Source: Kangiellaceae bacterium | Lineage (GTDB): Bacteria > Pseudomonadota > Gammaproteobacteria > Enterobacterales > Kangiellaceae | Assembly: GCA_039969155.1 (NCBI GenBank) | Contig: JBDVOJ010000112.1 | Location: forward strand, 3,859-67,858 | DNA: 64,000 nt | Direction: 5' to 3' | Part shown: one piece after another, positions 10,276 through 56,335 of the stretch | Layout: every line of letters starts with the position of its first letter | How positions within the stretch are numbered: position 1 is the first letter of the stretch | The notes under the pieces: generated by a model | The model's input: the letters and a program-made list of their open reading frames with translations, nothing else | What the model was told of the DNA's origin: nothing | The model's database searches: none | Program-made: the position numbers and the translations under genes

Positions 10276-10363
10276 TTTACCATTCCTTGTTGGTGTGCTT
10301 AAAATTTAGACAATAAAAAAGGCCAGAGTTCGGCCTTTTATCTCTATATTTTATTTACAGCTA

Positions 10364-11714: not shown

Positions 11715-11727
11715 CATTTCAAAAGGC

Positions 11728-13306: not shown

Positions 13307-13315
13307 ATTATTAAC

Positions 13316-16010: not shown

Positions 16011-16081
16011 TTATTTGTTACCCAAGTTTTCAATTAATTTTTTTCCAGTTAAACTTTTGCTGCTCGAAAATATAAAAAATT

Positions 16082-16107
16082 GAGGTAATAGCTTTCGCTA
16101 ATACCTC
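16082..16107 (-). terminator. intra-operon hairpin between pstS and pstC
   Basis: The stem is GAGGTA...TACCTC and is followed by AATTTTTT on the minus strand. An attenuator after pstS is common in pst operons. Confidence 0.45.
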
Positions 16108-16137
16108 TTTTTTAAAACAACCTACAGACTGAGAAAT

Positions 16138-17226: not shown

Positions 17227-17311
17227 ACCAGAAATACCGTATTTGATATCGTTGGTAATTTCGATTTGTAGTCAGTGTATGGCTCAATTGTGACTAATAT
17301 ATTACGGTAAT

Positions 17312-17329
17312 ATGACAGCTTTATTACAA
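17312..17329 (-). promoter_or_regulatory. Pho box upstream of pstS
   Basis: The minus strand reads TTGTAAT-AAAG-CTGTCAT, two 7-mers in an 11-bp register. A TAATAT -10-like hexamer follows about 12 nt downstream. Confidence 0.75.
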
Positions 17330-17356
17330 GAGTTTCACTATTTCTAAGTTGGCAAA

Positions 17357-17388
17357 AAGAACCACTTAACTTAAGCTAAGCGGTTCTT
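17357..17388 (-). terminator. rho-independent terminator after the porin gene
   Basis: The stem is AGAACCGC...GTGGTTCT and is followed by TTTTGCC on the minus strand. Confidence 0.6.
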
Positions 17389-17415
17389 TTTATTAAGAAA
17401 TAACTGAGCAGTTAA

Positions 17416-18426: not shown

Positions 18427-18470
18427 AATTAAGGCTAGTTTTTAAGTTGAGCGTATAATAGGGCGGTTAT

Positions 18471-18488
18471 ATGACAGATTTATGACAA
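18471..18488 (-). promoter_or_regulatory. Pho box upstream of the porin gene
   Basis: The minus strand reads TTGTCAT-AAAT-CTGTCAT, near-perfect to the E. coli consensus CTGTCATA(A/T)A(A/T)CTGTCA(C/T). A TATTAT -10-like element follows. Confidence 0.85.
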
Positions 18489-26110: not shown

Positions 26111-26173
26111 AAGAATATCCTAGTATTGAGATTAATTTTCGGCTCAATGTTAAGAGTGATTTGTTAAACTAAT

Positions 26174-26191
26174 ATGACACTATTATGATAG
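26174..26191 (-). promoter_or_regulatory. Pho box upstream of the phytase-like lipoprotein gene
   Basis: The minus strand reads CTATCAT-AATA-GTGTCAT in an 11-bp register, about 62 nt upstream of the ATG. Confidence 0.7.
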
Positions 26192-34447: not shown

Positions 34448-35809
34448 CTAGCTTGCGTAACTGTTAAGTTCGGCTAATTGTTGCGCTTTCTCTTTTTCCT
34501 TCTTAGCGTATTTAATCCATTGCTCTGCAATTCGCCTTTGTTGTTTCTTGTCAGTTGCTTTAGAGAAACTGGCAATCGCTTGGTCGAACTGCTTCAGATT
34601 AAAGTGAGCAATTCCTAGAATTACGTCAAGATTACCAGGTCGATCAAGGTTACCTTTTTGCTTAGCCGTATTAGCCGAATCGATTGCTGACTGCCATTGT
34701 TCCAGTTCAATCAAAGCTTCTGCCAAACGTGCATCCAAATTGCCGCTTTTACTCAGGTTGGCCGCTCGTCGTAAAACCGGAACCGCCTTTTCAGTTTCCT
34801 TGGCGCTTAACCATGCTTGCGCTAGATAGTTTAAGATTTTAACGTTTTCTAACACAATGCCATCTTCAATACTTTTACTCAGTAATTTCGCTGCTTTGTA
34901 AGGTGCTCCGCTTTCATAATAGAGTTGGGACAATGTTTGAAGGTCGATCTTCTTAGTCACAAAACCCTGTTGATAAGCGGCTTCCATCACAGATAGTTGT
35001 TTTTCTGGTTGTTCGGTTTCCCCATACATATTGGCTAGATCAATCCAATAATTAGCCTTCGAATAGTAACGTACTAGCTGCTCAGAGACTTCAGTCACCT
35101 TAGCGGTTTGTTTTAATTCGTAGTGTAATGCTCTTTTTAGAACCAACCAGTTTTCTTTAGGAACATCGCCTTTCTGGAAAGCTTGTGCCACCACTTGACT
35201 GATCGATTTTTCCGCCTCAATGTAATTTTTCATCGCATAGAAAGCATTGGCTTTTAACACTAACGCATTGCTATTTAGCTCGCCTTTAACAACTTGCCAC
35301 TGGTTGAGGTAATCGATGGTTTTGTTATAGTTCTCAGATGCCATATTTAATTGTGCAAGACTAAACAAGGTCGACAGCTCTAAGGACTCGGGAATATTTT
35401 TTTGCTCCACAACCTTTTCAAATGATTTTATTGCAGCCGCTGAATCATTCTTGCCATAATAAATAAAGCCATAAAAATTCCACAGCATCGCTTTTTCATA
35501 AGAGTTGATTTGATCTATTCGGGTCTTGACGCGATCGAGTACCGCTAATCCCTCGTTCACTTGACCTTCATCAGCTAATTTTTGCGCCCGTGCAAGTTGG
35601 CTATAAACACGCTCTCGCATCGCTGGCGTCTTGCGTGTTTTGCGTTTCTTTGAGCTGTCTTCTGCCGCATAGATCTTTGAACCAATGGTTATCGAGAAGC
35701 TCGAGGATTGGCTACCAATATTTAGATTCAATCCAATATACAGTAACGTAAATAGAGCGCTAGTTTTGAATATTTGACTCAATATTTTCATGGCGTATTT
35801 CTCCAACAA
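34448..35809 (-). CDS. TPR-repeat protein, last gene of the TonB2-type cluster (TtpD-like)
   Basis: 453 aa with a signal/anchor and multiple TPR repeats. Its position after tonB matches the Vibrio TonB2 system. Confidence 0.7.
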   Translation of the reverse strand: MLEKYAMKILSQIFKTSALFTLLYIGLNLNIGSQSSSFSITIGSKIYAAEDSSKKRKTRKTPAMRERVYSQLARAQKLADEGQVNEGLAVLDRVKTRIDQINSYEKAMLWNFYGFIYYGKNDSAAAIKSFEKVVEQKNIPESLELSTLFSLAQLNMASENYNKTIDYLNQWQVVKGELNSNALVLKANAFYAMKNYIEAEKSISQVVAQAFQKGDVPKENWLVLKRALHYELKQTAKVTEVSEQLVRYYSKANYWIDLANMYGETEQPEKQLSVMEAAYQQGFVTKKIDLQTLSQLYYESGAPYKAAKLLSKSIEDGIVLENVKILNYLAQAWLSAKETEKAVPVLRRAANLSKSGNLDARLAEALIELEQWQSAIDSANTAKQKGNLDRPGNLDVILGIAHFNLKQFDQAIASFSKATDKKQQRRIAEQWIKYAKKEKEKAQQLAELNSYAS

Positions 35810-35849
35810 AAGGGGGTATCTCTTTTAGTGACAGCTTTTTAGGTCACAG

Positions 35850-36455
35850 TTAGTTCATTTTAAATGTGATTTTATTTTGTACACCAGCAACTTCAGTTGC
35901 TTGACCGTCAATGACTCTTGGTTTGTATTTAAATTTTAATGCCGCTTCTTTAGCGGCTTGGTCGAAAATACCTTGCGGTTGAGCATCTACGACTATCGGA
36001 TCTCTGACGCTTCCATTTTTGGTCACTACAAATTCAACAATCACATAACCTTCTATGCCTCGAGACAGAGCTCTTCGTGGATAAATCGGAGCAACTTTCA
36101 CTATCGGTAAATACTCTCCATCTCCCGACTCTAACGCGAGCCCAGAGGACAAATTGGTATCTGCTGCAACATCAGCGGAAAAGCCAATTTGACCGATATC
36201 TGCCACAAGATCTTGCGATTCCATTGGCGGTTGTTCTATCGGTGGCGGCTCGTCTTCTGGTTTTGGTGGCTTTTTGGGTTTGCGTTTTTTGGTTTGTACG
36301 TTTTCGTCTTTCTTAAGCCGAACAAAATCAATCACTCGACCTTGAGGCCCTTCTTCTAACCCATTATCATCATTAATAATTAAGTAACGCATGCCTAGGA
36401 AGAGTCCAGCGGTTATAACAAACGCAAGTAACACAGCGTAAATGTAGCGACTCAT
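35850..36455 (-). CDS. tonB: energy transducer TonB
   Basis: It has an N-terminal TM segment, a Pro/Lys-rich spacer (KKRKPKKPPKPEDEPPPIEQPP) and a C-terminal TonB domain (YPRRALSRGIEGYVIVEFVVTKNGSV). Confidence 0.9.
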   Translation of the reverse strand: MSRYIYAVLLAFVITAGLFLGMRYLIINDDNGLEEGPQGRVIDFVRLKKDENVQTKKRKPKKPPKPEDEPPPIEQPPMESQDLVADIGQIGFSADVAADTNLSSGLALESGDGEYLPIVKVAPIYPRRALSRGIEGYVIVEFVVTKNGSVRDPIVVDAQPQGIFDQAAKEAALKFKYKPRVIDGQATEVAGVQNKITFKMN

Positions 36456-36458
36456 CAG

Positions 36459-36869
36459 TTACATCTCTTTAGCGGCAATGGATACGTCATAAACTCCAGC
36501 AGAGCGCGCTCCGTCCATTACTTTAATCAAAACATCTGTAGTGGCTTTTTTATCAGCCTGAACTACAACAGTTGCTTGCGGGTTTTCTGCGTGTAATCTT
36601 GCAACATTAGCTTCAACCGCTCGAACATCAATTCGACGTTTGTTAATCCATACTTCGCCCTTTTCGTTAATGGCGATTAAAATACCTGCGCGATCTTTCT
36701 GTACCGCAGTTGCCGCTTCTGGGCGATTAACATCAATTCCTGCTTCTCGCACAAAAGACGCAGTCACAATAAAAAAGATCAACATAATAAATACAACATC
36801 CAACATAGGTGTCATATTAATTTCAGACTCTTCTTCATCTTCTAATAATTTTGCAAACGGTGCTCTCAT
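36459..36869 (-). CDS. exbD: biopolymer transport protein ExbD/TolR
   Basis: 136 aa with the motif INMTPMLDVVFIMLIFFIV. Confidence 0.9.
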   Translation of the reverse strand: MRAPFAKLLEDEEESEINMTPMLDVVFIMLIFFIVTASFVREAGIDVNRPEAATAVQKDRAGILIAINEKGEVWINKRRIDVRAVEANVARLHAENPQATVVVQADKKATTDVLIKVMDGARSAGVYDVSIAAKEM

Positions 36870-36926
36870 CGCACGCTACCTCTTAAAATATTTGGCTTAT
36901 CTAACTAAACCACTCTCGACGTTTGT

Positions 36927-37454
36927 TTAATGGTCAAGTAGCAGTTTATCTTCCATTAATTCTGTTTCTTTCTTGGCGGTTCTTTTTAGCCAAGTCGAAG
37001 CGAAAACGCCTGACAAAGCCCCGACCATACCCGCCATTGTTGGAATGGTTGCCTTGGACACTCCGGACGCCATCGAACGAGCATTACTACTACCCGTAAC
37101 AGCCATCACATCAAACACTTCGATCATTCCTGTTACGGTACCTAACAGTCCCAACAACGGACAAAGTGCCACAAACGCTTGAATAGTTGGGAGCGACTGA
37201 TGAAGTGCCGCTTTAGTTCGCGAAATCATAGCGGTACGTATTTGTTCTGCATACCAAGAGTTTCTTTCAGAACGAGACATCCAAGTATCGATTACCGATT
37301 GACGATAATCACGATAGAAAAATCGAAGATAAATAAACCGTTCCAAAATTAGCATCCACATAATAAAAATGAGAATGCCAATATAATTTAGAACGACTCC
37401 TCCAGTCTCTAAGAACTCTCGGATCATCTCGATGTATTCGGTTAAAGTCGGCAC
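36927..37454 (-). CDS. exbB: MotA/TolQ/ExbB proton-channel protein (small form)
   Basis: 175 aa with 3 TM segments and the motif CPLLGLLGTVTGMIEVF. Confidence 0.88.
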   Translation of the reverse strand: MPTLTEYIEMIREFLETGGVVLNYIGILIFIMWMLILERFIYLRFFYRDYRQSVIDTWMSRSERNSWYAEQIRTAMISRTKAALHQSLPTIQAFVALCPLLGLLGTVTGMIEVFDVMAVTGSSNARSMASGVSKATIPTMAGMVGALSGVFASTWLKRTAKKETELMEDKLLLDH

Positions 37455-37456
37455 GC

Positions 37457-38839
37457 TTATGCTTCCTGCTCTGCTCGTTCAGCAATCACACCAGCAGCCT
37501 GCTCTTGCAGAACATGTAAGATGCTTTTACTGCGAGTATTTAGCCAGGTAAACAACATAACCGTAGGGATAGCTACCACCAGACCTAACACTGTTGTTAC
37601 TAAAGCCGTAGAAATACCGCCGGCCATCAACTTAGGGTCGCCGGTTCCGAAAAGAGTGATAGCCTGAAATGTCGTAATCATCCCGGTAACTGTTCCTAGT
37701 AGGCCTAGCAAAGGAGCAACTACCGAAATGATTTTGATAAAAGTGATACCTTTAGTTAGTTTCGGTAACTCTTTTAAAATTGCTTCACTCAACTTTAACT
37801 CTAACGTATCGGTCGCTACATCAGAATATTTCTCTTTAACTCTCAATACCCGGCCCAAGGGATTGTTATCATTCAGCTGATTCGACTTCAGTTGACGTTT
37901 AACTTTTTGTTCAGTTAAAAATAGCGCTACATATTGTTTAATCGCTATGACCAATGCGATAAGACCTAAAGATAAAATCACGTATCCAACCGGACCACCT
38001 TGGTCAACTCTTTCCATTTGGTCAGGAGCCTGAACTAACAAGCCCAAAATACTTCCGCCGGTTGGATCGAGAGCAAAAGCTGAAAAACCTTGTTCAGTAT
38101 TTTCTAAATCGACCACTGTATCAAGAAAGCGGCCGGTTGGCTGTCTGACGAGTTCAGCAATTGTATTAGTCGCGTTAAGCCACTCTAAGTAAACCCCATC
38201 AGAAACCAGATTAAATGTCCCTACTCGAGTAACAGGTTTCACTACTTTATTACCGTCAGCTAACGTGACTTCTTTTTCGAAGGTCTTTACTTTTCCTGAC
38301 TCCGACATCTCTCTGGTAAGCTCGTACCAAACTTGTTCAATTTCTTCGATAGAAGCTAGACTGGTTGACGAACCCATTTTTGCCGACAATTCATCAAGAA
38401 ATTTTTCTCGTCCAGGAATTTCCGCGGAAATAATACTGGTAGTGAACTTACCGCTAGTATCACCTGACACTTGTTGCAACACGCCAAAAAGTTCTTTTAA
38501 TGACCCAAGACGCTTATTTAAAGCGTCGTTAAGATCATTAATCTTTATTTCATTTTCTTCGAAGGCTGTTTCCAGCTTGTCGGAAATGGTAACTTGCTCA
38601 TCTCGAGCAGCCACTGCATTGGATAACAGTTTATCCTGCTGATCTTTTTGCTTGATAAAAACATTTTCACGTTGCTTGTTTTCTTGAGACTGCTGGTACT
38701 GACCTTTTTTTAACTTGGCTAACAAATCATCAATGTTAATTGCCTTTTCTTCTGCTGCTGAAGTAAAAGGCATGACCAACATCGCAGAAATTGCAAAGAT
38801 TACAGTCTGGATTCGATTGTTTTTAAGATTAAATTTCAT
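37457..38839 (-). CDS. large MotA/TolQ/ExbB-family protein with a periplasmic N-domain (TtpC-like)
   Basis: 460 aa with a signal peptide, a long coiled-coil/periplasmic region and a C-terminal ExbB-like channel (APLLGLLGTVTGMITTF). Confidence 0.8.
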   Translation of the reverse strand: MKFNLKNNRIQTVIFAISAMLVMPFTSAAEEKAINIDDLLAKLKKGQYQQSQENKQRENVFIKQKDQQDKLLSNAVAARDEQVTISDKLETAFEENEIKINDLNDALNKRLGSLKELFGVLQQVSGDTSGKFTTSIISAEIPGREKFLDELSAKMGSSTSLASIEEIEQVWYELTREMSESGKVKTFEKEVTLADGNKVVKPVTRVGTFNLVSDGVYLEWLNATNTIAELVRQPTGRFLDTVVDLENTEQGFSAFALDPTGGSILGLLVQAPDQMERVDQGGPVGYVILSLGLIALVIAIKQYVALFLTEQKVKRQLKSNQLNDNNPLGRVLRVKEKYSDVATDTLELKLSEAILKELPKLTKGITFIKIISVVAPLLGLLGTVTGMITTFQAITLFGTGDPKLMAGGISTALVTTVLGLVVAIPTVMLFTWLNTRSKSILHVLQEQAAGVIAERAEQEA

Positions 38840-38866
38840 AGCGATAATTCCTAGTTAGACCTATAT

Positions 38867-39628
38867 TTACTTAGCTTCAGCTGCGGCAATCGGAACAATG
38901 ATCATATCCGGCGCAAGTTGTTTTTTAGCCATTCTTAGGCCCTTACTAATTTGACTGCGATAGTTACTATCTAGTGGTTTCCACTCTTTCACTTTGTCAT
39001 CCCAGATTCCCATATTTTGTTTATCTCTGCTTTGAAAAACTAGCGCAACCCGTCCTATTCGTAAGTAGTTCACTTCTTGTTGCTGGCCATTAACTTCTGC
39101 ATTTCCGGCATAGGATTCTATGGTTCTGCCATAATCGACTTCCACTTGATAGGCTTCTAATACTCTTCTGAACTTTTCCGAAACAGCAACATCGGCTCTA
39201 TCCATCATTTCGTTCAATTGAGTTAGTCGGTTTTGTCGTTCTTCTGGAAGGAATGGAACATCAAGCTTCACAAATTCTTCTAACCCAGAAATCATGCGTA
39301 GCATTAGCGGTGTAATTTGTCTTTCAATGACCGTAACCTGATCCATTGATTCGGAAAGACGGGTCATTTCAAGTAGTTGATTTTCTATCTGGCGATTCAT
39401 TTGAGCGTTATAGATTTTTAAGCCATCAGTTTCTTTATTGACCGACTTGAATTGCTGTAACTTACTCTGAATCTCGTCGGCTAAACGATCGACTTTCTGT
39501 TGTGATTTAATCGCAGATTCATTGATTACTGCGCTGTTATCGACAACCACTTTTAATTCATCGGCTTCAACATAGCTATTCATCGCGAATAACAGTGATA
39601 CTAAAGTGAAGCTTTTTAATATATTCAT
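38867..39628 (-). CDS. DUF3450-like periplasmic coiled-coil protein (TtpB-like)
   Basis: 253 aa with a signal peptide and a coiled coil. It is the first gene of the six-gene TonB2-type arrangement. Confidence 0.7.
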   Translation of the reverse strand: MNILKSFTLVSLLFAMNSYVEADELKVVVDNSAVINESAIKSQQKVDRLADEIQSKLQQFKSVNKETDGLKIYNAQMNRQIENQLLEMTRLSESMDQVTVIERQITPLMLRMISGLEEFVKLDVPFLPEERQNRLTQLNEMMDRADVAVSEKFRRVLEAYQVEVDYGRTIESYAGNAEVNGQQQEVNYLRIGRVALVFQSRDKQNMGIWDDKVKEWKPLDSNYRSQISKGLRMAKKQLAPDMIIVPIAAAEAK

Positions 39629-39732
39629 GTAACTTTGACCTCAAATAAGGAATTCATAATTCGTGCTATATCGCCAAACAGTAAAGATTCAAACACGATC
39701 TGGGTAATAGGGCGCTAGTGTAGTGAGCTTAT

Positions 39733-39761
39733 GTGACAGATTTTTTACAGCTAGATGACAT
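39733..39761 (-). promoter_or_regulatory. three phased Pho-box half-sites upstream of the TonB2-type cluster
   Basis: The minus strand reads ATGTCAT-CTAG-CTGTAAA-AAAT-CTGTCAC, three 7-mers at exact 11-bp spacing. Confidence 0.7.
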
Positions 39762-39882
39762 GAAAGTTACTGGTGTAATATCAGTGAGTTAGCTTGAAAT
39801 GTTTCTAAGGTTGAATGAAGCAAAGCATGGTATTAGCTAAGAAGCTGGCGGAACGTATTAGACGTATTTTAATCTCAAATCG

Positions 39883-40935
39883 TATCGATAATGCTAGCAC
39901 TTCGCCTACGCTCAGTGAGCATTTAGTTTTAGAAAAAACCATGCACTTCCCGAAAGCCGGCTGAGCGCAGTCGAAGCCTTACGAACTCCAACTATATCGA
40001 TAATGCAGACACTTCGACTCCGCTCAGTGAACTTAATTTTTTAGAAAAGAACCGCACTCCCACACCAGCCGGCTGAGCGCAGTCGAAGCCTTACGAACTC
40101 CAACTATATCGATAATGTAGACACTTCGACTCCGCTGATTGAGCTTTAGTTTTTGGAGCCCTTTAGTCGTCGGATTTGATCACCATAATGAGATTCATTT
40201 TGACAACTTGCAGCCTTTTTTAGACGATTGAAATCCGAGTTAATGAGTGCCTGTTTCTTTTTCTTACTCCAACCTTGGAGTTGTTTCTCTCGATAAAAAG
40301 CTTCATCTATACGTTCGAATTCTTCTAGATACACAAGAGTGATTGGAAGTCTATGTTTTGTGTAACTTGCACCTAAACCAGACCGGTGTTGCCAGACTCG
40401 TAGGTCTATATTTTTGGTGCTTCCTATATAGTAGCTTTGGTCACTACAAAGAAGTATATAAGTGAATCCTTTCATGATGGTTTCCTTTCATTGCCGAAAA
40501 CGTCCTGTTTAAAGTTAGGATAACACAATAGAGGATTTTACATCTAGGAGGCAACACTTCGACTCCGCTCAGTGAGCATTTAGTTTTAGAAAAAAACCAT
40601 GCACTCCTTGCAAGCCGGCTGAGCGCAGTCGAAGCCTTACGATCTTCAAGCATACTGATAATGCAAACACTTCGACCACGCTCAGTGTGCTTTTAGTTTT
40701 AGAAGAAACCCTGCACTCCTTGCAAGCCGGCTGAGCGCAGTCGAAGCCTTACGATCTCCAACCATACTGATAATGCAAACACTTCGACTACGCTCAGTGT
40801 GCTTTTAGTTTTAGAAAAAACCTGCACTCCTTGCAAGCCGGCTGAGCGCAGTCGAAGCCTTACGATCTTCACCCACACCCATAAGGCTGACATTTCGACT
40901 CCGTAGTTCGACTCCGCTCACCACAGCGCTCAATG
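39883..40935. repeat. array of about 6.5 copies of a 112-113-bp unit, each containing a long imperfect palindrome
   Basis: Left arms (ACTTCGAC...) start at 39899, 40011, 40123, 40556, 40669 and 40781, with a partial one near 40893. Each unit has the form ACACTTCGACTCCGCTCAGTG-(about 45 nt)-GGCTGAGCGCAGTCGAAGCC. There are two linker subfamilies (left of the GIY-YIG gene and right of it). Confidence 0.9.
40146..40475 (-). CDS. small GIY-YIG (URI-domain) nuclease family protein
   Basis: 109 aa with the motifs FTYILLCSDQSYYIGSTKNIDLRVWQHRSG...EKQLQGWSKKKK (GIY...YIG...R...E..K pattern). Confidence 0.85.
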   Translation of the reverse strand: MKGFTYILLCSDQSYYIGSTKNIDLRVWQHRSGLGASYTKHRLPITLVYLEEFERIDEAFYREKQLQGWSKKKKQALINSDFNRLKKAASCQNESHYGDQIRRLKGSKN

Positions 40936-40960
40936 GACCTTTACTTTTTAAAAACAAAAG

Positions 40961-43618
40961 CTAGAAATTTACAGAAACTTGCAGGCTTAATTCAGTTCCA
41001 ACTGTTTCTGTTAGTATATCAACGTCTTCTTGCTCAATCGTTTTATCTTCACCTAACAAATTTTTCACTTGGAATTTTAAAGTGGTATCGTAGGTCGGAT
41101 ACCAAGTGTAAATGAAATCCAATGAATGAAAAGAGTTCTCTTCCGCATCTTCAAAACCGCTCACCCCAGGTACGATTATTCGAGGACCGAACACGTTGTA
41201 AACCAAGGTAGCTGCATGTTCGTTATTTAATGCGTCCCAACCCATTTGTAGGTTAACTACCCACTCTGAATGACCAATTAATCGACGAGTGTTATTGGTA
41301 ATTACCGAAGTAACACTCTGATCAGTATTCAAAGCTTCTTTTAATTGGTCTTCAAATAAACAGTTAGCAGCACCAACAGAAGAACAAATATTCACTTCAG
41401 AATCACTATAAGTAAAGTTACCAGTAACAAAATAGTTGGCCATATCGTCACTGATAAACGATAGATCTTTTAAGAACTCAACTTCTACCCCATATAGCTG
41501 CCCGTCGGTGGCGTTAGCCGTCAACAGTTGAGGTGCCCCTTCAGTGGCACTCGGTAATTCAATTTGCTCAATCGGATTGGTGATATCTTTCCAGAAAAAC
41601 GCTACAGAGACATTTTCACCAGTTTCTAAATACCACTCCCAACGGAAGTCAATGTTGTCGACTGCAGAACTTTTAAGAGACGTTGAACCTCTGACTAAGA
41701 ACTCGGTTAAAGGATCGATATAGAAGCTAGTAGAGATGTCTCGGAAATCTGGACGAATCGTGGTTTCGCTATAATTAAATCGAAATTGCATCTCACTATC
41801 AACAATATAAGTCGCTGCGAGGGAAGGAAACAACTCATCTTCTAGCAACGGTAATTCTGAAATTGAATCAGTATCGCCAGCAAAAAAGTCTGAATGAGGC
41901 TGAAAAGGGATGGAGACTTGTCTAAAATCTTCATATCTAACGCCACCAGTCACTCGCCAGTTTTTGTTCAAATCAAAATCCGCCATAAAGTAATAAGCAT
42001 CAATTAAAGTAGCAGCTTTGTATTTATCACCGTTTGAAGTCGCGTCATCCAAACGAATATTATAATCACTTTGCGACAAATTATTATCTGACATGATTTG
42101 CGAAAAATCGTCGCCAGCTAGATATTGGGATGGGATCGAAAATGTTTGAAGTACGATTCCGATACTTTCAGCATCACGATTTTTTTCTACAAAATCAGCG
42201 CCTGCTTTTAACTCAACACTCCACGAATCGTTATAGATTGGCATGGAAAGATTAAAGCCATAGTTTTCAACATCATCTTCCAAGAATTGAAAACCATAAG
42301 TCGTATTAATATCTCTAGCCAGCTGAGAACTAGAAACACCACCAACGCGGTCGATTCTAAACGTGGTTTCAAATGCTCCAGGAGCATCTCTCTCTGTTTT
42401 ACTTTTAGACACATACCAATCAGCGCCTAGATTAAACCAGTCTGGAAAGTTATGACGACCTTTTAGCTGGTGAGAAATCAATTCCCTTTCTTCATAAAGT
42501 ACATCAACTTTGCGACGAGATTCGTCTGGCTCATTAATGGTGTTGGTGTTTTCGAATTGTCGATTTCTCAATCGATCTTTAGTATCACTAAGAAATATGT
42601 TATTCAGTTCCAAATGATGATCTTGATTAAAGTCATAACCAAGATTTAACATCCCACTCCATTTTATTTGATGTTCGGTAGACTGGCCGTCAGCAAACTC
42701 ATTAATTCTAATTTCGCCACCGGATTTCGCTAGGTTGTTAATATTTCTTTCTTCACTAACATTCCATTCGTTTTTGTAGGACAGGCTCGCCAAAAAGCCA
42801 ATTCGAGAATCACTGCCAAAGTCAATTTTGTCACCATAGGTTAGATCAAATCCGTAGTCAGGGTCGATTGACTGTTCTTGCGCATCAATGTCTCTGTTTA
42901 ATGAGCTAACAATCGCAACAGATTCTTGGGTAGATAATCCATTGAGTCCATCTCCATTAAGAGTAGAACTTAGTAAAGACGATAATTCTCTAGTTCCATC
43001 ATCGCTGCCAAAGTTATCGTCGCTACCACCAGCATACCAAGCAGAGTCATCGTTATCGAAATTAAATCCTAATTTACCACCGACTTTAAAAACTCTTTCG
43101 CTTGGGATGGATTTAGTTCGAATATCAACATTTCCTCCAGCAAAATGAGCGGGAAGGGCAGGTGAATATGATTTTTGTACATTAAGACTTTCGATAATTC
43201 CAGATGGAAATAAATCGAGTGGTAAAACCGAACGAGTCGGATCTGGACTCGGGACGGTAGCACCATTTAACAAGGTGCTAGAATATCGCTCACCTAGTCC
43301 ACGGATGTATATGTATTTTCCATCAACCAGGGTTAAGCCTGTGACACGTCTAAGTGCGGAGGCAGCATCACTATCACCCGTTCGTGAGATTTGTTCCGCA
43401 CCTAGAATATCGGCAACAAAGGCTTGATCTTTTCGTTCGTCTAAAACGGCTTGAGCACTACCCTGTAGGCGGCTTCCAGTAACCACTACTTCTTCTAACT
43501 CAGTTTCTTGATTTTCTTCCTCGGCAACCACCGAAAGCGGTGCGAGACTAGTTAACAGAGCGAAGCTGACCGCCGTCGCTGCTTTTTTAACTAGATATTT
43601 ATTGTGTAATCTATTCAT
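40961..43618 (-). CDS. TonB-dependent outer-membrane receptor
   Basis: 885 aa with a signal peptide, a TonB box/plug (EEVVVTGSRLQG...), a long beta-barrel and a terminal aromatic residue (...SLQVSVNF). Confidence 0.92.
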   Translation of the reverse strand: MNRLHNKYLVKKAATAVSFALLTSLAPLSVVAEEENQETELEEVVVTGSRLQGSAQAVLDERKDQAFVADILGAEQISRTGDSDAASALRRVTGLTLVDGKYIYIRGLGERYSSTLLNGATVPSPDPTRSVLPLDLFPSGIIESLNVQKSYSPALPAHFAGGNVDIRTKSIPSERVFKVGGKLGFNFDNDDSAWYAGGSDDNFGSDDGTRELSSLLSSTLNGDGLNGLSTQESVAIVSSLNRDIDAQEQSIDPDYGFDLTYGDKIDFGSDSRIGFLASLSYKNEWNVSEERNINNLAKSGGEIRINEFADGQSTEHQIKWSGMLNLGYDFNQDHHLELNNIFLSDTKDRLRNRQFENTNTINEPDESRRKVDVLYEERELISHQLKGRHNFPDWFNLGADWYVSKSKTERDAPGAFETTFRIDRVGGVSSSQLARDINTTYGFQFLEDDVENYGFNLSMPIYNDSWSVELKAGADFVEKNRDAESIGIVLQTFSIPSQYLAGDDFSQIMSDNNLSQSDYNIRLDDATSNGDKYKAATLIDAYYFMADFDLNKNWRVTGGVRYEDFRQVSIPFQPHSDFFAGDTDSISELPLLEDELFPSLAATYIVDSEMQFRFNYSETTIRPDFRDISTSFYIDPLTEFLVRGSTSLKSSAVDNIDFRWEWYLETGENVSVAFFWKDITNPIEQIELPSATEGAPQLLTANATDGQLYGVEVEFLKDLSFISDDMANYFVTGNFTYSDSEVNICSSVGAANCLFEDQLKEALNTDQSVTSVITNNTRRLIGHSEWVVNLQMGWDALNNEHAATLVYNVFGPRIIVPGVSGFEDAEENSFHSLDFIYTWYPTYDTTLKFQVKNLLGEDKTIEQEDVDILTETVGTELSLQVSVNF

Positions 43619-43765
43619 TACTTACTCCAACAAAATTGTTGCTTTTTTGTTTCATTTCTCGCGCTAAGGGGTTTGAAAAATCGAAGAATCTATCAACTCA
43701 AGATTACTCCTGCCGCGATGAACTTATGATTCAATTAATATTCTTTTCTATCTAATTTAAATAAA

Positions 43766-43794
43766 GGGAAATAAGATCTTCGATCCTATTTCCC
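43766..43794 (-). terminator. rho-independent terminator after the triplicated lipoprotein gene
   Basis: The stem is GGGAAATA-N13-TATTTCCC and is followed by TTTATTT on the minus strand. Confidence 0.6.
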
Positions 43795-43813
43795 TCATAG
43801 TCTGGATTTATGA

Positions 43814-46800
43814 TTAGTCGTCTAGACCAACAGTGACCCAGCCAGCAGTCCAATCGTTGTCTTCACCAACCGCACCGATAAAGTCAGGGCTATCAAACCA
43901 GCTGTCAATGCTATTCATATCAGCAGCCGCTGCAGAAGTTGCAGTCTCGTATCCAGTGATAACATCAGCCATTGTTGCTTCGACACTGTTACCTGTTTGT
44001 GCCAAGAACCAGTCTTCAGTCGTTGTTGTTGCTGTTGCGTTACCTTTGAAGTTTTCGCCGTTTTCGCAAGCAACTACACTGTTTTGCATGATAAGTGCAC
44101 CAGACTCTGCATTCGCTTGAGTTTCAGGGAAGCTATCAACTTCCAAGCACTCTCCCATGCCTGCAGGTCCAGTGATTAGCACGTTGTATAATTCGCCAGC
44201 AGTTCCGTGTCTTAATAAAACGCCTTCTGAATCTTCATTAGCGGCGCCAATAATGGTGAAATTAGCGATGACTGGAGTCGTTAGCGGAGTAGCCGCTGGC
44301 GCTTCTTCACCGTTGTCAGCTTCAATACCACGATTAACAAAAGCTGCATCATGTTTGATTAATACGTACTGAGCTCTGCCAGTCCAACCAAATGACCAGT
44401 CGAAAGAGTCATCGCCGTTAGCAGTCAACACTAAATGTCTAACGTCTACGGTACCGCCAAAGAACTCGACACCGTCATCTAAATTCATATGAACTTGGAT
44501 GTAGTCAACATTTGTCTCGCTTCCAACACCCGCGAATGAAATTCCGTTTAGCTCATCACCTGAACCAAGTGCTTTACCTGCGTACTTAACAACCACATAA
44601 CGTAGCGTTCCAGAATTATCTTCAGCGTTGTCGCCACCGTACAATCCAGCGTCACCTTCTGCACTAATTCCACAGTTAGCCAACTCAGTTGCATCAGCAA
44701 CGTCATCACCATTTCCATCACAAAGATTAGATGGCGCATTACCTAACAATACTAATCCACCCCATTGTCCAACAGCCGTTGCTTGACCTGTCACATCTTG
44801 AACCGAAGTCATGATGATTGGAGACGATGCACTACCTAACGCTTCAATTTTTGAACCACGGCGAGCGACTAAGAAGTCATCACCCGTTTCGCCAATTAGG
44901 GTTGTTCCTGGCTCGATATATAGAGTGGCGCTATTTGCGTTGTCTTCACCAACCGCTGTACGACCTTTTAACACCCAATGCTTGTCATTAGTTAGAACCA
45001 CATCGGATGTAAACACGACGTCAGCATCTAACTTATAAACGGGCTTATCAGTAATTGCAGCAAACTCTCCAGAGGCATCGGTCGCTAGACCTTGCGCATC
45101 AGCAGAAGTGATATCGGTAGGGATACCTGTGTTAACACCAACAGTCCAACCTTCCATCCAGTTACTTTCACCATCAAATGCACCAATGTAATCAGTTGAG
45201 CGGAACCAAGAGTCGCTATAGGCATCTGCTGCGTCTACACCTGCTCCTAGTAAAGGAGAACCAGATTGAGGAGTAAATCCATCAGCTAATAGAACTAAGG
45301 CTTCTGAGTTATCAAATGCACTGTTACCAGTTTGACCTAAGAACCAATCTTCAGTGGTAGTCGCGTCAGTCGCATTCCCTTTAAAGTTCTCACCATTTTC
45401 ACAAGCTACGATAGAATGAGTCATGATTAATGAACCGTTCTCAGCATTCGCTCGAGTTTCTGGGAAACTATCAACTTCTAAACATTCGCCCATGCCTGCA
45501 GGACCCGTAATTACAAAGTTGTGTAATCGTCCAGCCGTTCCGTGACGAAGTAGGACACCTTCAGAATCACTGCCCGGAGCGTTAGCACCACGAATGGTTA
45601 CATTACTTACGATAGGGTTAGTTAAAGGAGTCGCAGCTGGAAACTCTTCGCCGTTGTCGGCTTCGAAACCGCGATTGGCTTGTGTGTCGTTGTGCTGTAC
45701 ATAGATGAATTGAGCGCGACCAGTCCAACCAAATGACCAATCAAAGCTATCGTCACCATTTCCGGTTAAAACAACGTGGCTAACATCAATACTTCCACCA
45801 AAAAACTCAACACCGTCGTCAAGATTTTCGTGAACTTGAATGTAATCAACAATCGTTCCACTACCAACACCCGCAAATGAAATACCATTTAGCTCATCAC
45901 CTGAACCAAGTGCTTTACCTGCTTGTTTAACCACTACAAACTTAAGTGTTCCAGAGTCGTCTTCAGAATCATTACCACCGTAAAGACCTGCATCACCTTC
46001 AGCATTGATACTACATCCAGCTAACTCATCAGCATCAGCAACATTGTCGCCATTTGCATCACACAAATTCGAAGGCGCGTTACCTAAGAGAACTAAACCA
46101 CCCCATTGCCCGATATCTGTTTCTTCGCCAGTCACATCTTGAATCGAAGTCATTATAATCGGAGCACCGGCTGTACCAACTGCCTCAATTTTAGAATCAC
46201 GACGAACCACTAAGAAGTCATCACCCGATTCTCCAATCAAAGTGGTACCTTGTTGGATATATAGAGTGGCACTGTTGGCTCGATCATTACCGACAGCCGT
46301 TCGGCCATTTAGGATCCAATGAGCATCGTTAGTCAGAGTCACATCAGAAGTAAACGTGGTGCCATTGGCCAAACGATAAACTGGCTTGTCAGTAATTTCT
46401 GGAAACTCGCTAGAAACGTTTGAAGCTAAACCTTGTTGAAGTGCATTTTGAATGTTAGCAGGGAAACCGCCTTTAACGCCCACAGCCCATCCTTCGGTCC
46501 AGTCATTAGTTCCATCGAAAGCACCGACATAATCAACACTATCGAAGAAGCTATCAACTGCAGAAACATCTAGTCCAGCTCCTAGAAGTGGCGAACTTGT
46601 TGTTGGCATATAACCGTTGACTTCCATTTGTACTGATGAAGAATCGGCAAATGCAAGGTTCCCTGTTTGGCCTAAGAACCAATCTTCTGTGGTCAATGTA
46701 TCGGTGGCATTCCCTTTAAAATTTTCACCATTATCACAAGCGATCACAGAGTGAGTCATGGTCAACTCTCCACTTTCGGCATTCGCTCGAGTTTCTGGAA

Positions 46801-47902
46801 AGCTGTCTACTTCTAAACATTCGCCCATTCCAGTTGGACCTGTTACCACGATATTATGTAGGTTGCCTGCGGTTCCATGACGAAGAAGAACACCTTCTGA
46901 ATTGGCATCAGGAACATTGCCACCAACAATCGTAAAATTTGAAATAATTGGCTTTGTTAATGGAGTTGCTGCTGGAAATTCTTCGCCGTTGTCTGCTTCT
47001 ATAGCACGATTTCCAGCTGTGTCATTTGCTTGAACATAAACGTATTGTGCTTTTCCTGTCCAACCGAATGACCAATCAAAAGCGTCATCGCCGTTGCCTG
47101 TTAAAACAACATGTTTAACATTGACCGAACCACCGAAAAACTCAACACCGTCATCAAGGTTTTCGTGAACCTGAATGTAATCAACATTCGTTCCACTACC
47201 AACACCAGCAAATGAAATACCGTTTAGCTCATCACCTGAACCTAACGCTTTACCCGCTTGTTTAACAATCACATATTCAAGCGAACCAGAATTATCTTCT
47301 GAATCGTCGCCACCATATAGTCCGGCATCTCCTTCTGCACTAATGCTACAGTTAGCTAGCTCAGTTGCATCGGCGACATCGTCACCATTGGCATCACACA
47401 GGTTTGACGGAGCGTTACCCAAAAGGACCAATCCGCCCCATTGACCTATAGCGGTTTCTCCTCCAGTGACATCTTCAAGTGACGTCATAGTAATGGGTGA
47501 AGATTGATTACCATTTGCTTGGATAGTTGAACCACGACGAACCACCAAAAAGTCGTCTCCTGAACGTCCGATAACAGTTGTGCCTGCTTCAATGGTCAAC
47601 TCAGATGAACTTGCTCGGTCTTCACCAACAGCAACTCTTCCAGTCAATACCCATAAAGCATCATTGCTAAAAGTCGCGTCTGCGGTGAGGGTTCCAGTCA
47701 CTTCACACACATTGTCGAAACTACCAATTGCGTCAATTTTTGTTGCGAAACTAGGACAGGTAAATCCTGTCACTGGGGGTTGGACTACTGGGGGCTGAAC
47801 GACTTCATCGCCTTCAACAATTGAAATATCTCCACCGCCGCAACCCGTGAGTGCTAAAACACCCGCCACTGCACTAACAGAGATTAGTTGGTTAAATTTC
47901 AT
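43814..47902 (-). CDS. 1362-aa surface lipoprotein made of three tandem ~445-aa repeats of an uncharacterised beta-helix-like module
   Basis: It has a lipobox (LTGCGGG). The motif set IGQWGG(L)VLLGNAP, GDELNGISFAGVGSGT, DYIQVH.NLDDGVEFFGG, GDD(A/S)FDWSFGWTG and EADNGEE occurs three times. The DNA-level period is 1335-1341 bp (the CCCCATTG landmark is at 47436, 46101 and 44760). Confidence 0.85.
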   Translation of the reverse strand: MKFNQLISVSAVAGVLALTGCGGGDISIVEGDEVVQPPVVQPPVTGFTCPSFATKIDAIGSFDNVCEVTGTLTADATFSNDALWVLTGRVAVGEDRASSSELTIEAGTTVIGRSGDDFLVVRRGSTIQANGNQSSPITMTSLEDVTGGETAIGQWGGLVLLGNAPSNLCDANGDDVADATELANCSISAEGDAGLYGGDDSEDNSGSLEYVIVKQAGKALGSGDELNGISFAGVGSGTNVDYIQVHENLDDGVEFFGGSVNVKHVVLTGNGDDAFDWSFGWTGKAQYVYVQANDTAGNRAIEADNGEEFPAATPLTKPIISNFTIVGGNVPDANSEGVLLRHGTAGNLHNIVVTGPTGMGECLEVDSFPETRANAESGELTMTHSVIACDNGENFKGNATDTLTTEDWFLGQTGNLAFADSSSVQMEVNGYMPTTSSPLLGAGLDVSAVDSFFDSVDYVGAFDGTNDWTEGWAVGVKGGFPANIQNALQQGLASNVSSEFPEITDKPVYRLANGTTFTSDVTLTNDAHWILNGRTAVGNDRANSATLYIQQGTTLIGESGDDFLVVRRDSKIEAVGTAGAPIIMTSIQDVTGEETDIGQWGGLVLLGNAPSNLCDANGDNVADADELAGCSINAEGDAGLYGGNDSEDDSGTLKFVVVKQAGKALGSGDELNGISFAGVGSGTIVDYIQVHENLDDGVEFFGGSIDVSHVVLTGNGDDSFDWSFGWTGRAQFIYVQHNDTQANRGFEADNGEEFPAATPLTNPIVSNVTIRGANAPGSDSEGVLLRHGTAGRLHNFVITGPAGMGECLEVDSFPETRANAENGSLIMTHSIVACENGENFKGNATDATTTEDWFLGQTGNSAFDNSEALVLLADGFTPQSGSPLLGAGVDAADAYSDSWFRSTDYIGAFDGESNWMEGWTVGVNTGIPTDITSADAQGLATDASGEFAAITDKPVYKLDADVVFTSDVVLTNDKHWVLKGRTAVGEDNANSATLYIEPGTTLIGETGDDFLVARRGSKIEALGSASSPIIMTSVQDVTGQATAVGQWGGLVLLGNAPSNLCDGNGDDVADATELANCGISAEGDAGLYGGDNAEDNSGTLRYVVVKYAGKALGSGDELNGISFAGVGSETNVDYIQVHMNLDDGVEFFGGTVDVRHLVLTANGDDSFDWSFGWTGRAQYVLIKHDAAFVNRGIEADNGEEAPAATPLTTPVIANFTIIGAANEDSEGVLLRHGTAGELYNVLITGPAGMGECLEVDSFPETQANAESGALIMQNSVVACENGENFKGNATATTTTEDWFLAQTGNSVEATMADVITGYETATSAAAADMNSIDSWFDSPDFIGAVGEDNDWTAGWVTVGLDD

Positions 47903-47975
47903 AGTTTACTCCACTCGGATAACAATTTGTTTTATTAAGATCGGTTACAGAATAGGCCGAGTAGATTTCAGAAAA

Positions 47976-48003
47976 ATGACAACTTGTGACAGTTAAATGA
48001 CAT
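47976..48003 (-). promoter_or_regulatory. Pho box (plus a third half-site) upstream of the triplicated lipoprotein gene
   Basis: The minus strand reads ATGTCAT-TTAA-CTGTCAC-AAG-TTGTCAT. The first two 7-mers are in an exact 11-bp register and the third is offset by 1. Confidence 0.75.
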
Positions 48004-48244: not shown

Positions 48245-48625
48245 ATGGCTAGAAAACCCTCGTCACAATTGACCGATAGCGAACAAAATATCATGCGAAT
48301 ACTCTGGGATAGGGGAGAGGCCTCGGTTAGAGAGATCACCGATATTTTGTCGCAAGATAAAAAAACGGCTTACACCACGGTGCAAACCATGTGCAAGATT
48401 TTGGCTGACAAAGGTTACGCCGACTTCCACAAACAAGGCAAAGCGTTTATCTACTCACCCAAAATTACTCAGCAAGAGGCTAGGCAGGGCGCGCTGACGA
48501 GTATGTTGAATAAATTTTTTGGTGGCTCGCCAAAGGTATTGGCTCAGCATTTGTTAGAAGAAACCAATATCGATTTAAAAGATCTTGAAGAATTACAGAA
48601 TAAAATAGATCAAGCAGAAGATTAA
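48245..48625 (+). CDS. BlaI/MecI/CopY-family winged-helix transcriptional repressor
   Basis: 126 aa with LTDSEQNIMRILWDRGEASVREI...AYTTVQTMCKILADKGY, which is typical of the family. Confidence 0.88.
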   Translation: MARKPSSQLTDSEQNIMRILWDRGEASVREITDILSQDKKTAYTTVQTMCKILADKGYADFHKQGKAFIYSPKITQQEARQGALTSMLNKFFGGSPKVLAQHLLEETNIDLKDLEELQNKIDQAED

Positions 48626-48662
48626 TTGTAATGGAAATTTATTCTCCGGGACTAAGAATATT

Positions 48663-50210
48663 ATGATTGCCGAATTTACTGTATTTGTGACTCTAGCAAC
48701 TCATCATCTAATTATTGGTGTTGCGCTTTTTGTTCTATTGCGCCTGCTCTTTACCACAATAAGAGTTTCACCCGAACTTAGAAGTTGGCTTTGGCTCACG
48801 GCTTTTTTTATGGCGACTATTGTTCCAGTCACTTTAATTCAAGAAAGTAATGATGCGATTAATCAAACATTGTTTGCTACTAAGGCAAATAAAACGGCAA
48901 CGCCAAAGGCCCAGGCTCCAAGTCTAAATAAGCAGCCAATACTCGCCGATGCCAATACCATTTGGATAGCTCCTACCGAAGTTATTTTCCATTCTAATCA
49001 ATTGCTAAAGCTATTTTGCATGATTTGGATTCTTGGCAGTTTATGGCGCTGCTATAACTTGTTTCAGTCACATCAAAAGACTATTGGACTTTTAACGCTA
49101 AGTAGAGACTCCGAAACACTTAAATCTTTAGCGAAACGATTTCAAATTGAAATTTTAGAATCAAATGAAATTGGCAGCCCCTCAGTGATTGGCCTTTTTA
49201 AACCCAAAGTCGTTATTCCACGTCAGTTTATTGAACAGTTTTCATTAGAACAGCTTGAGCCAATCGTGTTGCATGAAATGGCACATATTCAGCGGCGTGA
49301 TACTTGGATTAGCATGCTGCAAGAATTAATAGCCGTAATCTTTTGGTGGAGTCCAATCGTTAGGATTTTAAACAAACGAATTCATATTGATAGAGAACTC
49401 GCTTGTGATCTGCGAGCCGCCAAACAAATCAGTAACAAACAATATGCTCAGTCATTAGTTGATTGTGCTCGAATAATGATTACCCAAAAAAGGAGCATCC
49501 TAGCTATGGGACTTTTTAGTCAGAAAAAAGAATTATTACAACGCGTTGACCAGGTGTTACGCAGTCGAAAAGTTATGCAACCTAGCCTCTGGTTGGTCAG
49601 TGGTGTTTGCCTCTCACTCTCACTAGTGACAATTGGTGCGACTCAAACCTTTTCGCCGAAAGTGAGTATTGTAAAGGCAAAAAATGATGCCAAACAATAT
49701 TCTTTCCTTTCCCAAAGAACAGGACAACAGCTAATTGCGGCTGTTTCGGCCAATGACATAGAAACTATTCGCTTCCTGCAATCAAGAGGGGTTGATATAG
49801 ATACGCCAGCAATTGGCGACGGAACCGCATTAATGATAGCCGTTAAAGAGAATAACCGAACGATGGTCGAAGCCTTATTGCAACTAGGTGCCAATGTAAA
49901 CCAAGCCTCTCGCTTTGATGGCAATCCGTTGATTGTAGCAGCCATGAGAAATCGCCTTGAATTAGCTCAGCTTTTAATTGACAGCGGTGCCGATGTAAAT
50001 GCCATTGTCACTTATGATGAAACTCCTTTGATTAACGCGACTCGTCGAGGTTATTTAGAAATGACTAAATTGCTGATCGATAATGGTGCTGATGTGAACT
50101 TAGCTGTGCAAACTGGAGCACTCGACGGTTCTAAAATTCGCTCACCTTTGAACATGGCGAATAATGCCGAGGTTCGTGAATTTCTAATAGAGCAGGGCGC
50201 CGTCGAATAA
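48663..50210 (+). CDS. BlaR1-like M56 signal-transducing peptidase with a C-terminal ankyrin-repeat domain
   Basis: 515 aa with N-terminal TM segments and the zinc motif HEMAHIQRRD. After the last TM there are 3-4 ankyrin repeats (GDGTALMIAVKENNRTMVEALLQLGANVN..., PLINATRRGYLEMTKLLIDNGADVN). Confidence 0.8.
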   Translation: MIAEFTVFVTLATHHLIIGVALFVLLRLLFTTIRVSPELRSWLWLTAFFMATIVPVTLIQESNDAINQTLFATKANKTATPKAQAPSLNKQPILADANTIWIAPTEVIFHSNQLLKLFCMIWILGSLWRCYNLFQSHQKTIGLLTLSRDSETLKSLAKRFQIEILESNEIGSPSVIGLFKPKVVIPRQFIEQFSLEQLEPIVLHEMAHIQRRDTWISMLQELIAVIFWWSPIVRILNKRIHIDRELACDLRAAKQISNKQYAQSLVDCARIMITQKRSILAMGLFSQKKELLQRVDQVLRSRKVMQPSLWLVSGVCLSLSLVTIGATQTFSPKVSIVKAKNDAKQYSFLSQRTGQQLIAAVSANDIETIRFLQSRGVDIDTPAIGDGTALMIAVKENNRTMVEALLQLGANVNQASRFDGNPLIVAAMRNRLELAQLLIDSGADVNAIVTYDETPLINATRRGYLEMTKLLIDNGADVNLAVQTGALDGSKIRSPLNMANNAEVREFLIEQGAVE

Positions 50211-56225: not shown

Positions 56226-56284
56226 AATAGGTTAATCAATGGTCCACCTTAGGTGATCCTGCAGCTGAAGTTTCTAGGACAAAT

Positions 56285-56335
56285 GTAACCGGTTGGTGAC
56301 AGTTTCTTGAAGGTTGTTTGACCGGTTTATGACAA
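56285..56335 (-). promoter_or_regulatory. five phased Pho-box-like 7-mers upstream of the nuclease gene
   Basis: The minus strand reads TTGTCAT-AAAC-CGGTCAA-ACAA-CCTTCAA-GAAA-CTGTCAC-CAAC-CGGTTAC, all on an 11-bp register. Two of the 7-mers are strong. Confidence 0.65.

Follow-up and report, generated by a model that had tools for sequence, protein, structure and literature searches.

The 64,000-nucleotide stretch analysed here (contig JBDVOJ010000112.1 of a Kangiellaceae bacterium, hereafter the window) carries the gene of a 1362-amino-acid (aa) lipoprotein, followed by the gene of a TonB-dependent receptor (TBDR). Together they probably form an ElpS/BT4056-type unit for uptake across the outer membrane, induced by phosphate starvation and serving a phosphorus-bearing substrate. 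Gene anatomy, membership of the Pfam family PF28492, a beta-helix fold, partnership with the receptor, linkage to Pho boxes and phoBR, and a set of core residues intact in all three modules of the lipoprotein are the observations that carry this reading. We propose a capture protein because the receptor is an obligate partner, because of the Pho and phoBR linkage and a Pho-box-bearing TonB motor, and because of the published behaviour of homologues. The first-pass annotation had already suggested PhoB-controlled surface binding or processing followed by import; family, receptor pairing and Pho marks agree with it, while its description of the family as uncharacterised needed correction, this family having been linked to phosphate starvation before the present analysis.

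A lipoprotein of three old modules

The gene and its modules, all on the reverse strand, were placed as follows:
43814..47902 (-), gene of the 1362-aa lipoprotein with three Beta_helix_4 (PF28492) modules, from the open reading frame (ORF) and its translation, PF28492 being recorded for the exact protein
46436..47770 (-), module 1, aa 45-489, from the repeat register, with all core residues kept
45095..46435 (-), module 2, aa 490-936, the module that was modelled, a predicted right-handed beta-helix
43817..45094 (-), module 3, aa 937-1362, from the repeat register and motif positions

Read from the sequence, the N-terminus MKFNQLISVSAVAGVLALTG followed by Cys is a predicted signal peptide ending in the lipobox LTG/C, with Cys21 as the putative lipidation site, after which aa 22-44 form a Pro-rich tether. 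ORF and repeat search bore out the earlier description of a 1362-aa frame with three modules of about 445 aa and a period of 1335-1341 bp, the gene holding three direct repeats with start-to-start distances of 1341 and 1335 nt. The maximum period of Tandem Repeats Finder (500) is smaller than that of the module, and the repeats were measured by a general repeat search instead. Every motif of the set listed for the module was found three times at a spacing of 445/447 aa; only the exact string IGQWGGLVLLGNAP is limited to two copies, because copy 3 begins VGQWGG.

The long stretches of near-identical nucleotides that had been described between the copies were not found. Pairwise DNA identity is 65-68%, with longest identical runs of 20, 23 and 35 nt, and protein identity is 68-71%. 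Where two modules share a residue, they use the same codon at a fraction of 0.40-0.49, against 0.41 expected from codon usage, and one short patch alone is elevated. Synonymous sites between the copies are saturated, and low DNA identity together with codon sharing at chance level means that the repeats are real but old.

Family assignment and published relatives

Local Pfam and NCBIfam scans gave no match for the lipoprotein; the PF28492 model is newer than the Pfam copy scanned. Public precomputed Pfam matches record PF28492 (Beta_helix_4) for the exact 1362-aa protein, annotated as hypothetical in public records, and for all 360 listed homologues. We assign the module to the ElpS / FI-FIII / BT4056 family. 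In BLASTP, module 2 of the window matched P0428, a PF28492 lipoprotein of Bacteroides thetaiotaomicron with 403 aa, at E = 2e-29 and 31% identity over 300 aa. The gene of P0428 lies directly after that of a non-SusC TonB-dependent transporter (TBDT), matching the arrangement of BT4055/BT4056, and this genomic context, rather than a locus tag, makes P0428 the likely BT4056. Its partner receptor aligned end to end with the receptor of the window (E = 3e-45). The gene order of elpS, namely lipoprotein-TBDR-gspN-gspD, recurred in PF28492 loci of Sphingomonas, Maricaulis, Oceanicaulis and a metagenome-assembled genome (MAG) of Caulobacterales.

The first member to be described, ElpS (CC_0170) of Caulobacter crescentus, is a phosphate-starvation-induced lipoprotein of about 50 kDa without recognisable domains; it is accessible to proteinase K on intact cells and therefore surface exposed, and its gene adjoins the receptor gene CC_0171 and a type II secretion system (T2SS) cluster (Le Blastier et al. 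2010, PMC2996285). The same authors noted homologues in Shewanella and Bacteroides and a conserved gene order in sphingomonads, Hyphomonas and Xanthomonas. Flavobacterium johnsoniae has three ElpS-like lipoproteins, FI, FII and FIII, whose loci are among those most strongly induced by phosphate depletion; FI and FII adjoin low-phosphate receptors, FII lying within the phoBR operon, and of the four hypothetical low-phosphate lipoproteins reported, three account for a large share of the exoproteome (Lidbury et al. 2021, PMC8115612). For Fjoh_0545/0546, phosphate depletion was the only inducer, with tight repression under nitrogen and iron limitation (PMC8115612). BT4056, with a pectin-lyase fold and homologous to ElpS and Fjoh_0546, was proposed as the "lid" of receptor BT4055, and pairs of this type are adjacent in 621 genera (Price, Deutschbauer & Arkin 2023, bioRxiv 10.1101/2023.03.17.533168). 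The earlier view of a widespread beta-helix lipoprotein next to a TBDR is right. That of an unstudied family is not, since published work covers induction at low phosphate, the exposure of ElpS on the surface and the partnership with the receptor. By analogy with these homologues, low-phosphate induction and surface exposure would be expected for the window protein too.

With ElpS/CC_0171 the window pair shares a lipobox lipoprotein without classical domain, encoded directly upstream of a TBDR. The size of ElpS (about 50 kDa) corresponds to roughly one window module (~445 aa), so that one module stands against three; moreover, ElpS is released by a T2SS-dependent protease and its gene adjoins the T2SS, whereas the window locus lacks a T2SS in its neighbourhood and has a TonB2-type cluster linked to it. 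FI, FII and FIII (Fjoh_3856, Fjoh_0546 and Fjoh_4889) are likewise ElpS-like lipoproteins with a pectin-lyase fold, FI and FII having low-phosphate TBDTs beside them, and the position of FII/Fjoh_0545 in the phoBR operon has its counterpart in Alteromonas, Rheinheimera and Glaciecola, where loci of the family adjoin phoBR. They differ in being single-module proteins of Bacteroidota and, for FII, in having the receptor gene first; their likeness to the window protein draws on the statements of the papers and the Bacteroides homologue. BT4055/BT4056 again combines a PF28492 lipoprotein with a homologous non-SusC TBDT, but the BT4056-type protein has one module and 403 aa, its receptor carries an N-terminal carboxypeptidase-regulatory domain, and the pair is without known phosphate regulation or fitness phenotype.

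The receptor and its TonB2-type motor

Downstream of the lipoprotein gene, the following features were identified:
43764..43796 (-), terminator-like hairpin with a 15-bp stem and a UUUAUUU tail, between the lipoprotein and receptor genes
40961..43618 (-), TBDR of 885 aa, with Pfam PF07715 and PF00593 (Plug and 22-strand-barrel family domains)
34448..39628 (-), TonB2-type cluster of six genes (Pfam), comprising:
38867-39628 (-), DUF3450 (Pfam)
37457-38839 (-), long MotA/ExbB (Pfam MotA_ExbB)
36927-37454 (-), ExbB (Pfam MotA_ExbB)
36459-36869 (-), ExbD (Pfam ExbD)
35850-36455 (-), TonB (Pfam TonB_C)
34448-35809 (-), tetratricopeptide repeat (TPR) protein (Pfam TPR)

That a terminator and then an 885-aa TBDR follow the lipoprotein gene was claimed beforehand and holds: the hairpin (43796-43764) folds at -19.8 kcal/mol with z = -5.3, and the receptor has both Plug and barrel domains. 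The receptor gene starts 195 nt downstream of the lipoprotein gene, and its product contains the TonB-box-like EEVVVTGSR. Lying between the two genes, the hairpin may attenuate read-through.

All six genes of the TonB2-type cluster are present in the window and in order (DUF3450-long ExbB-ExbB-ExbD-TonB-TPR), and the identical six-gene order flanks the lipoprotein-receptor pair in Alteromonas, Pseudoalteromonas and others. Between receptor and cluster, the 1.3-kb gap at 39629-40960 contains only a 109-aa GIY-YIG ORF (40146-40475) and two terminator-like hairpins; the distance from receptor to DUF3450 being about 200 nt in Alteromonas, the gap of the window looks like an insertion.

Pho boxes in the window

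Two elements mark the locus:
47976..48002 (-), Pho box preceding the lipoprotein gene, with TGTCAT-ttaac-TGTCAC in an 11-bp register plus a third TGTCAT half-site, an exact match to TGTCA-N6-TGTCA
39734..39760 (-), second Pho box, TGTCATctagcTGTAAaaaatcTGTCA, whose three half-sites are spaced 11 bp apart, located 106-132 nt before the DUF3450 gene, the first of the TonB2-type cluster

The strong Pho box reported earlier before the lipoprotein gene was recovered as a perfect TGTCA-N6-TGTCA with a third half-site. Its core, TGTCATttaacTGTCAC, lies at 48002-47986, and the third TGTCAT half-site, 10 bp further, reaches 47976; the full element, TGTCATttaacTGTCACaagtTGTCAT (48002-47976), ends 73 nt before the ATG of the lipoprotein gene. 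With at most one mismatch allowed, the pattern TGTCA-N6-TGTCA occurs ten times in the window against 4.0 expected, and none of 100 shuffles reached ten. Of these ten, seven precede phosphate-related genes and share their orientation; they represent six genes or operons, since two overlapping matches precede the DUF3450 gene. The six targets are pstS, a porin gene, a phytase-like gene, a gene combining a Lamin Tail Domain (LTD) with a nuclease, the lipoprotein gene and the DUF3450 gene.

The region 11728-18487 (-) holds a complete pstS-pstC-pstA-pstB-phoU operon, with a Porin_4 gene (17416-18426) preceding it, and Pho boxes stand before pstS (17313-17328, one mismatch) and the porin gene (18472-18487, perfect). 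As known Pho genes, these two serve as internal positive controls for the pattern.

Two further targets were recorded. The region 22964-26190 (-) encodes a 1048-aa protein with Phytase-like (PF13449), choice-of-anchor I and DUF7151 domains, preceded at a distance of about 65 nt by the Pho-box-like site TATCATAATAGTGTCA (26175-26190); this protein is a candidate secreted phosphorus-scavenging enzyme and might hint at the substrate class. Within 53892-56334 (-), a 777-aa extracellular-nuclease-like protein with a Lamin Tail Domain and an endonuclease/exonuclease/phosphatase domain is encoded, with a Pho-box-like site (56319-56334) about 95 nt upstream of the gene start.

Gene neighbourhoods of the pair

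Scanning species-representative genomes yielded at least 598 relatives, of which 80 loci were kept. Neighbours were counted over these 80 loci together with the window and plasmid-derived loci:
receptor (one homologous cluster), 74/80 loci
phoB/phoR, 36 loci
TonB/ExbBD genes, 24-29 loci
DUF3450, 26 loci
TPR protein, 18 loci
pstS, 12 loci
porin, 10 loci

The association of the family with TBDRs is borne out in 74 of 80 loci, with receptors forming one homologous cluster. A TonB2-type motor stands near the family gene in about 25 loci. Pho-box-like sites occur within 300 nt upstream in 33 of 85 loci, compared with 1.9% of background windows. In Alteromonas the order is phoB-phoR-pstS-(2OG oxygenase)-lipoprotein-TBDR-TonB2 cluster. 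The gene of this 2-oxoglutarate (2OG)-Fe(II) oxygenase stands between pstS and the family gene in six loci of Alteromonas and Aliiglaciecola (L002, L009-L011, L013, L029), and the window is without a counterpart. An apparent "ABC" neighbour cluster was rejected, its members being generic ATPases. A profile search of 1.84 billion representatives, as proposed in the first-pass annotation together with a look at genomic neighbours, found 10,264 members at E <= 1e-3.

These neighbourhoods also bear on what is taken up. If the pair imported a nutrient without phosphorus, such as an acidic polysaccharide or a metal/siderophore, the Pho-box match would be coincidental. The pectin-lyase-like fold would suit this reading, as would the label of the receptor by the Joint Genome Institute (JGI), "outer membrane receptor protein involved in Fe transport". 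Yet the pattern also picks out genes of the window that are bona fide Pho genes, 36 loci have phoBR next to the pair, no CAZyme genes are nearby, and a search for Fur boxes with up to three mismatches gave none in the whole window; the exclusive response of Fjoh_0545/0546 to phosphate depletion, with repression under nitrogen and iron limitation (PMC8115612), points the same way. We consider a non-phosphorus substrate very improbable.

Predicted fold and a conserved acidic core

An AlphaFold2 model of module 2, built with 58 homologues, is a right-handed beta-helix with a predicted local distance difference test (pLDDT) score of 93.9 and a predicted template-modelling (pTM) score of 0.93. Foldseek against the PDB returned generic beta-helix matches only (AlgE4 epimerase, tailspikes, pectate and alginate lyases), with E >= 7e-3 and template-modelling (TM) scores <= 0.37, and PDB sequence searches with the lipoprotein and with the 58-sequence profile gave no chain at E <= 10. 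The structure prediction and Foldseek run suggested beforehand thus support the presumed beta-helix and yield no function-specific match. AlgE4 A-module (2PYG), Pel9A (1RU4), PL6 lyases and phage depolymerases share the overall fold with the module, but sequence or profile similarity to these lyases and epimerases was not detected, and the context of the window is phosphate, not carbohydrate.

Across the 58 aligned homologues, 39 columns are invariant, including 16 charged or polar side chains and W233. Of the invariant residues, E181, N183, D206, D207, E210, D228, D229, D232, E258, D260 and R297 (module-2 numbering) are kept in Bacteroides at 31% identity, and all residues of this acidic core are present in each of the three window modules. 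They are spaced about one coil apart and flank predicted strands, which suggests a row of carboxylates on one face of the helix. Such a row would best be explained as a cluster of divalent cations through which an anionic ligand is bound.

A core of this kind might also be catalytic. The modules would then be enzymes built on a beta-helix scaffold, namely Ca2+-dependent lyases, hydrolases or phosphoesterases. Their target would be an anionic polymer outside the cell (teichoic acid, polyphosphate, nucleic acid or a phosphorylated glycan), with the receptor importing the fragments. All fold matches are to beta-helix lyases, epimerases and depolymerases, and the acidic residues plus Arg, about one coil apart, presumably resemble the Ca2+ sites of pectate and alginate lyases. 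The Foldseek matches are, however, weak at the values given above, no solved enzyme is matched by sequence or profile, and tandem arrays of two to five modules are more typical of avidity than of catalysis. Work on ElpS cuts both ways: its overproduction raised phosphatase activity in the supernatant, but purified or immunoprecipitated ElpS had no activity on p-nitrophenyl phosphate (pNPP) (PMC2996285). An enzymatic role therefore seems unlikely to us, though of the three alternatives weighed in this study it is the leading one, followed by accessory phosphatase activation and then by a non-phosphorus substrate.

Module number and its evolution

A triplicated form, which the first-pass annotation did not recall from elsewhere, is nothing unusual, as two to at least five modules are common in the family. 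Proteins with two modules prevail in Alteromonadales, Shewanella, Idiomarina and Rheinheimera; a single module is found in Salinimonas, Poribacteria and Bacteroides, and three modules in Alteromonas, Pseudoalteromonas and Halieaceae-type genomes. Proteins with four and five full modules also exist, for example one of 2035 aa with five matched stretches.

In a module tree, the three modules of the window are mutual closest relatives (bootstrap 98/100), with a core identity of 74-77% among themselves versus 58-66% to modules of other genera. Modules likewise group within Alteromonas, within Pseudoalteromonas and within a Pseudoalteromonadaceae MAG, whereas in the Halieaceae-type three-module proteins and most two-module proteins each position forms its own cross-species clade. 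The window's three modules thus appear to have arisen within their own lineage or to have been homogenised long ago, and the groupings of the tree imply that module number changed repeatedly, by independent duplication or old homogenisation. A triplication older than the genera, considered on account of module 2 best matching the middle module of orthologues, was overturned by the tree and its bootstrap value. In the Pseudoalteromonadaceae MAG (L012, family gene at 8426-12574), modules 2 and 3 are 90% core-identical, compared with 77-79% to module 1, which points to a recent duplication or gene conversion in that lineage.

The repeats had also been expected to make the gene a hotspot of recombination and copy-number variation. 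No strain-level sign of this was seen, because nearly all of the 20 proteins with >=90% identity to that of the window have a length of 1362 aa; module copy number does vary between species and genera.

Proposed mode of action

When phosphate is scarce, PhoB would bind the Pho box at 48002-47976 and drive transcription of the lipoprotein gene, the receptor being supplied either by attenuated read-through of the hairpin or by a separate promoter. The lipoprotein would be lipidated at Cys21 and displayed on the cell surface by its Pro-rich tether. Each of the three modules may offer a conserved groove with a carboxylate stack, one Asn and one Arg, most likely holding divalent cations (Ca2+/Mg2+) and, via these, binding an anionic phosphorus-bearing ligand. 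One module might dock on the cognate TBDR from the extracellular side, serving as a lid or as a partner that loads the substrate, with the remaining modules as added capture sites. Powered by the neighbouring Pho-box-bearing TonB2-type motor, the receptor would then move the ligand to the periplasm, where periplasmic phosphatases and PstSCAB could complete uptake.

A working analogy is provided by PusCD1/PusCD2 and by SusCD-type complexes of a TBDT with a surface lipoprotein, a phosphate-regulated receptor and its surface lipoprotein capturing organophosphorus (phosphatidylinositol / glycerophosphoinositol, GroPI) and passing it inward. PusCD is the first characterised receptor and surface-lipoprotein system for organophosphorus, being phosphate-regulated and followed by periplasmic hydrolysis (bioRxiv 10.64898/2026.09.03.749221). 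The components differ, PusD/SusD being helical and TPR-like, whereas the window lipoprotein is predicted to be an all-beta helix without SusD Pfam match and its receptor is not SusC-type. In the same study, function predictions for Pus3 and Pus4 were called difficult; going by the naming of PUSIII/PUSIV in Lidbury et al. 2021, we take these to be the ElpS-like FI/FII loci.

The pair could, alternatively, have an accessory role in the phosphate-starvation response of the envelope, the lipoprotein anchoring, activating or releasing phosphatases or remodelling the surface, and the receptor exporting or displaying it. Price et al. (bioRxiv 10.1101/2023.03.17.533168) called the export of such lipoproteins by Proteobacteria unclear. 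Against this role, the receptor is a TBDR with Plug and barrel both complete, and its dedicated TonB motor bears a Pho box, which argues for energised import; the pair is also conserved across phyla irrespective of the phosphatases that accompany it, so that we rate an accessory role as quite unlikely.

Several points weigh against the uptake unit proposed here. As of 2026, no ligand has been reported for any family member. ElpS was inactive as a phosphatase on pNPP both after refolding and after immunoprecipitation, and deletion of elpS in Caulobacter left supernatant phosphatase activity unchanged (PMC2996285); Caulobacter cc0171 was reported to be constitutive. Mutants of BT4055/BT4056 had no phenotype in 519 fitness experiments, and AlphaFold-Multimer found only few confident contacts between the two proteins (Price et al. 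2023, bioRxiv 10.1101/2023.03.17.533168). In the window, no Pho box was seen directly upstream of the receptor gene, and the neighbour census gave no recurrent phosphatase, nuclease or phytase gene beside the pair. The link to ElpS and Fjoh_0546 is made through the homology statements of the papers, the Bacteroides homologue and gene order, not through a direct alignment with ElpS, BT_4056 or Fjoh_0546, and both the one-face placement of the core and metal binding derive from sequence spacing and predicted strands, not from coordinates.

Other features of the window

Divergent from the lipoprotein gene, a BlaI-type repressor gene and then one for a BlaR1 M56 peptidase are found at 48245-50210 (+). 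The C-terminal sensor region of this BlaR1 consists of ankyrin repeats, not of a penicillin-binding domain, and in Shewanella sp. SG41-4 (L041) the family gene is likewise preceded by a BlaI/BlaR pair, of weak similarity. An IS110-family transposase ORF (57610-58518) has as its neighbour a gene for a 511-aa AAA_15/AAA_21 ATPase (59182-60717), of a kind common in defence or toxin-antitoxin systems, and GC content falls to 36-38% across 57610-60717.

Significance

Though ElpS was described sixteen years ago, and its relatives rank among the surface or secreted proteins with the strongest induction and highest abundance in phosphate-depleted Flavobacterium, three aspects, modest but useful, are new here. 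These are the three-module architecture with independent origins; the position of the pair, in marine Gammaproteobacteria, inside the core locus for phosphate (phoB-phoR-pstS) and together with a TonB2 motor putatively under Pho control; and a defined acidic core, invariant in every copy. The core residues are concrete targets for mutagenesis, and Alteromonas and Pseudoalteromonas are culturable hosts for a substrate search, the outcome of which would fill a gap in models of phosphorus acquisition by oceanic bacteria.

More tentatively, and with less confidence than we place in the uptake unit itself, Beta_helix_4 may be a new metal-dependent domain for binding (or hydrolysing) phosphorus compounds that, with its receptor and the Pho-regulated TonB2 motor, forms a major energised path, so far overlooked, by which phosphorus crosses the outer membrane of marine and soil bacteria. 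The family comprises more than 10,000 clusters at 50% identity. If this is true, the repeated independent multiplication to two to five modules would be an adaptation for scavenging ligands that are dilute or polymeric, for example polyphosphate, phytate-metal complexes or phosphorylated polymers.

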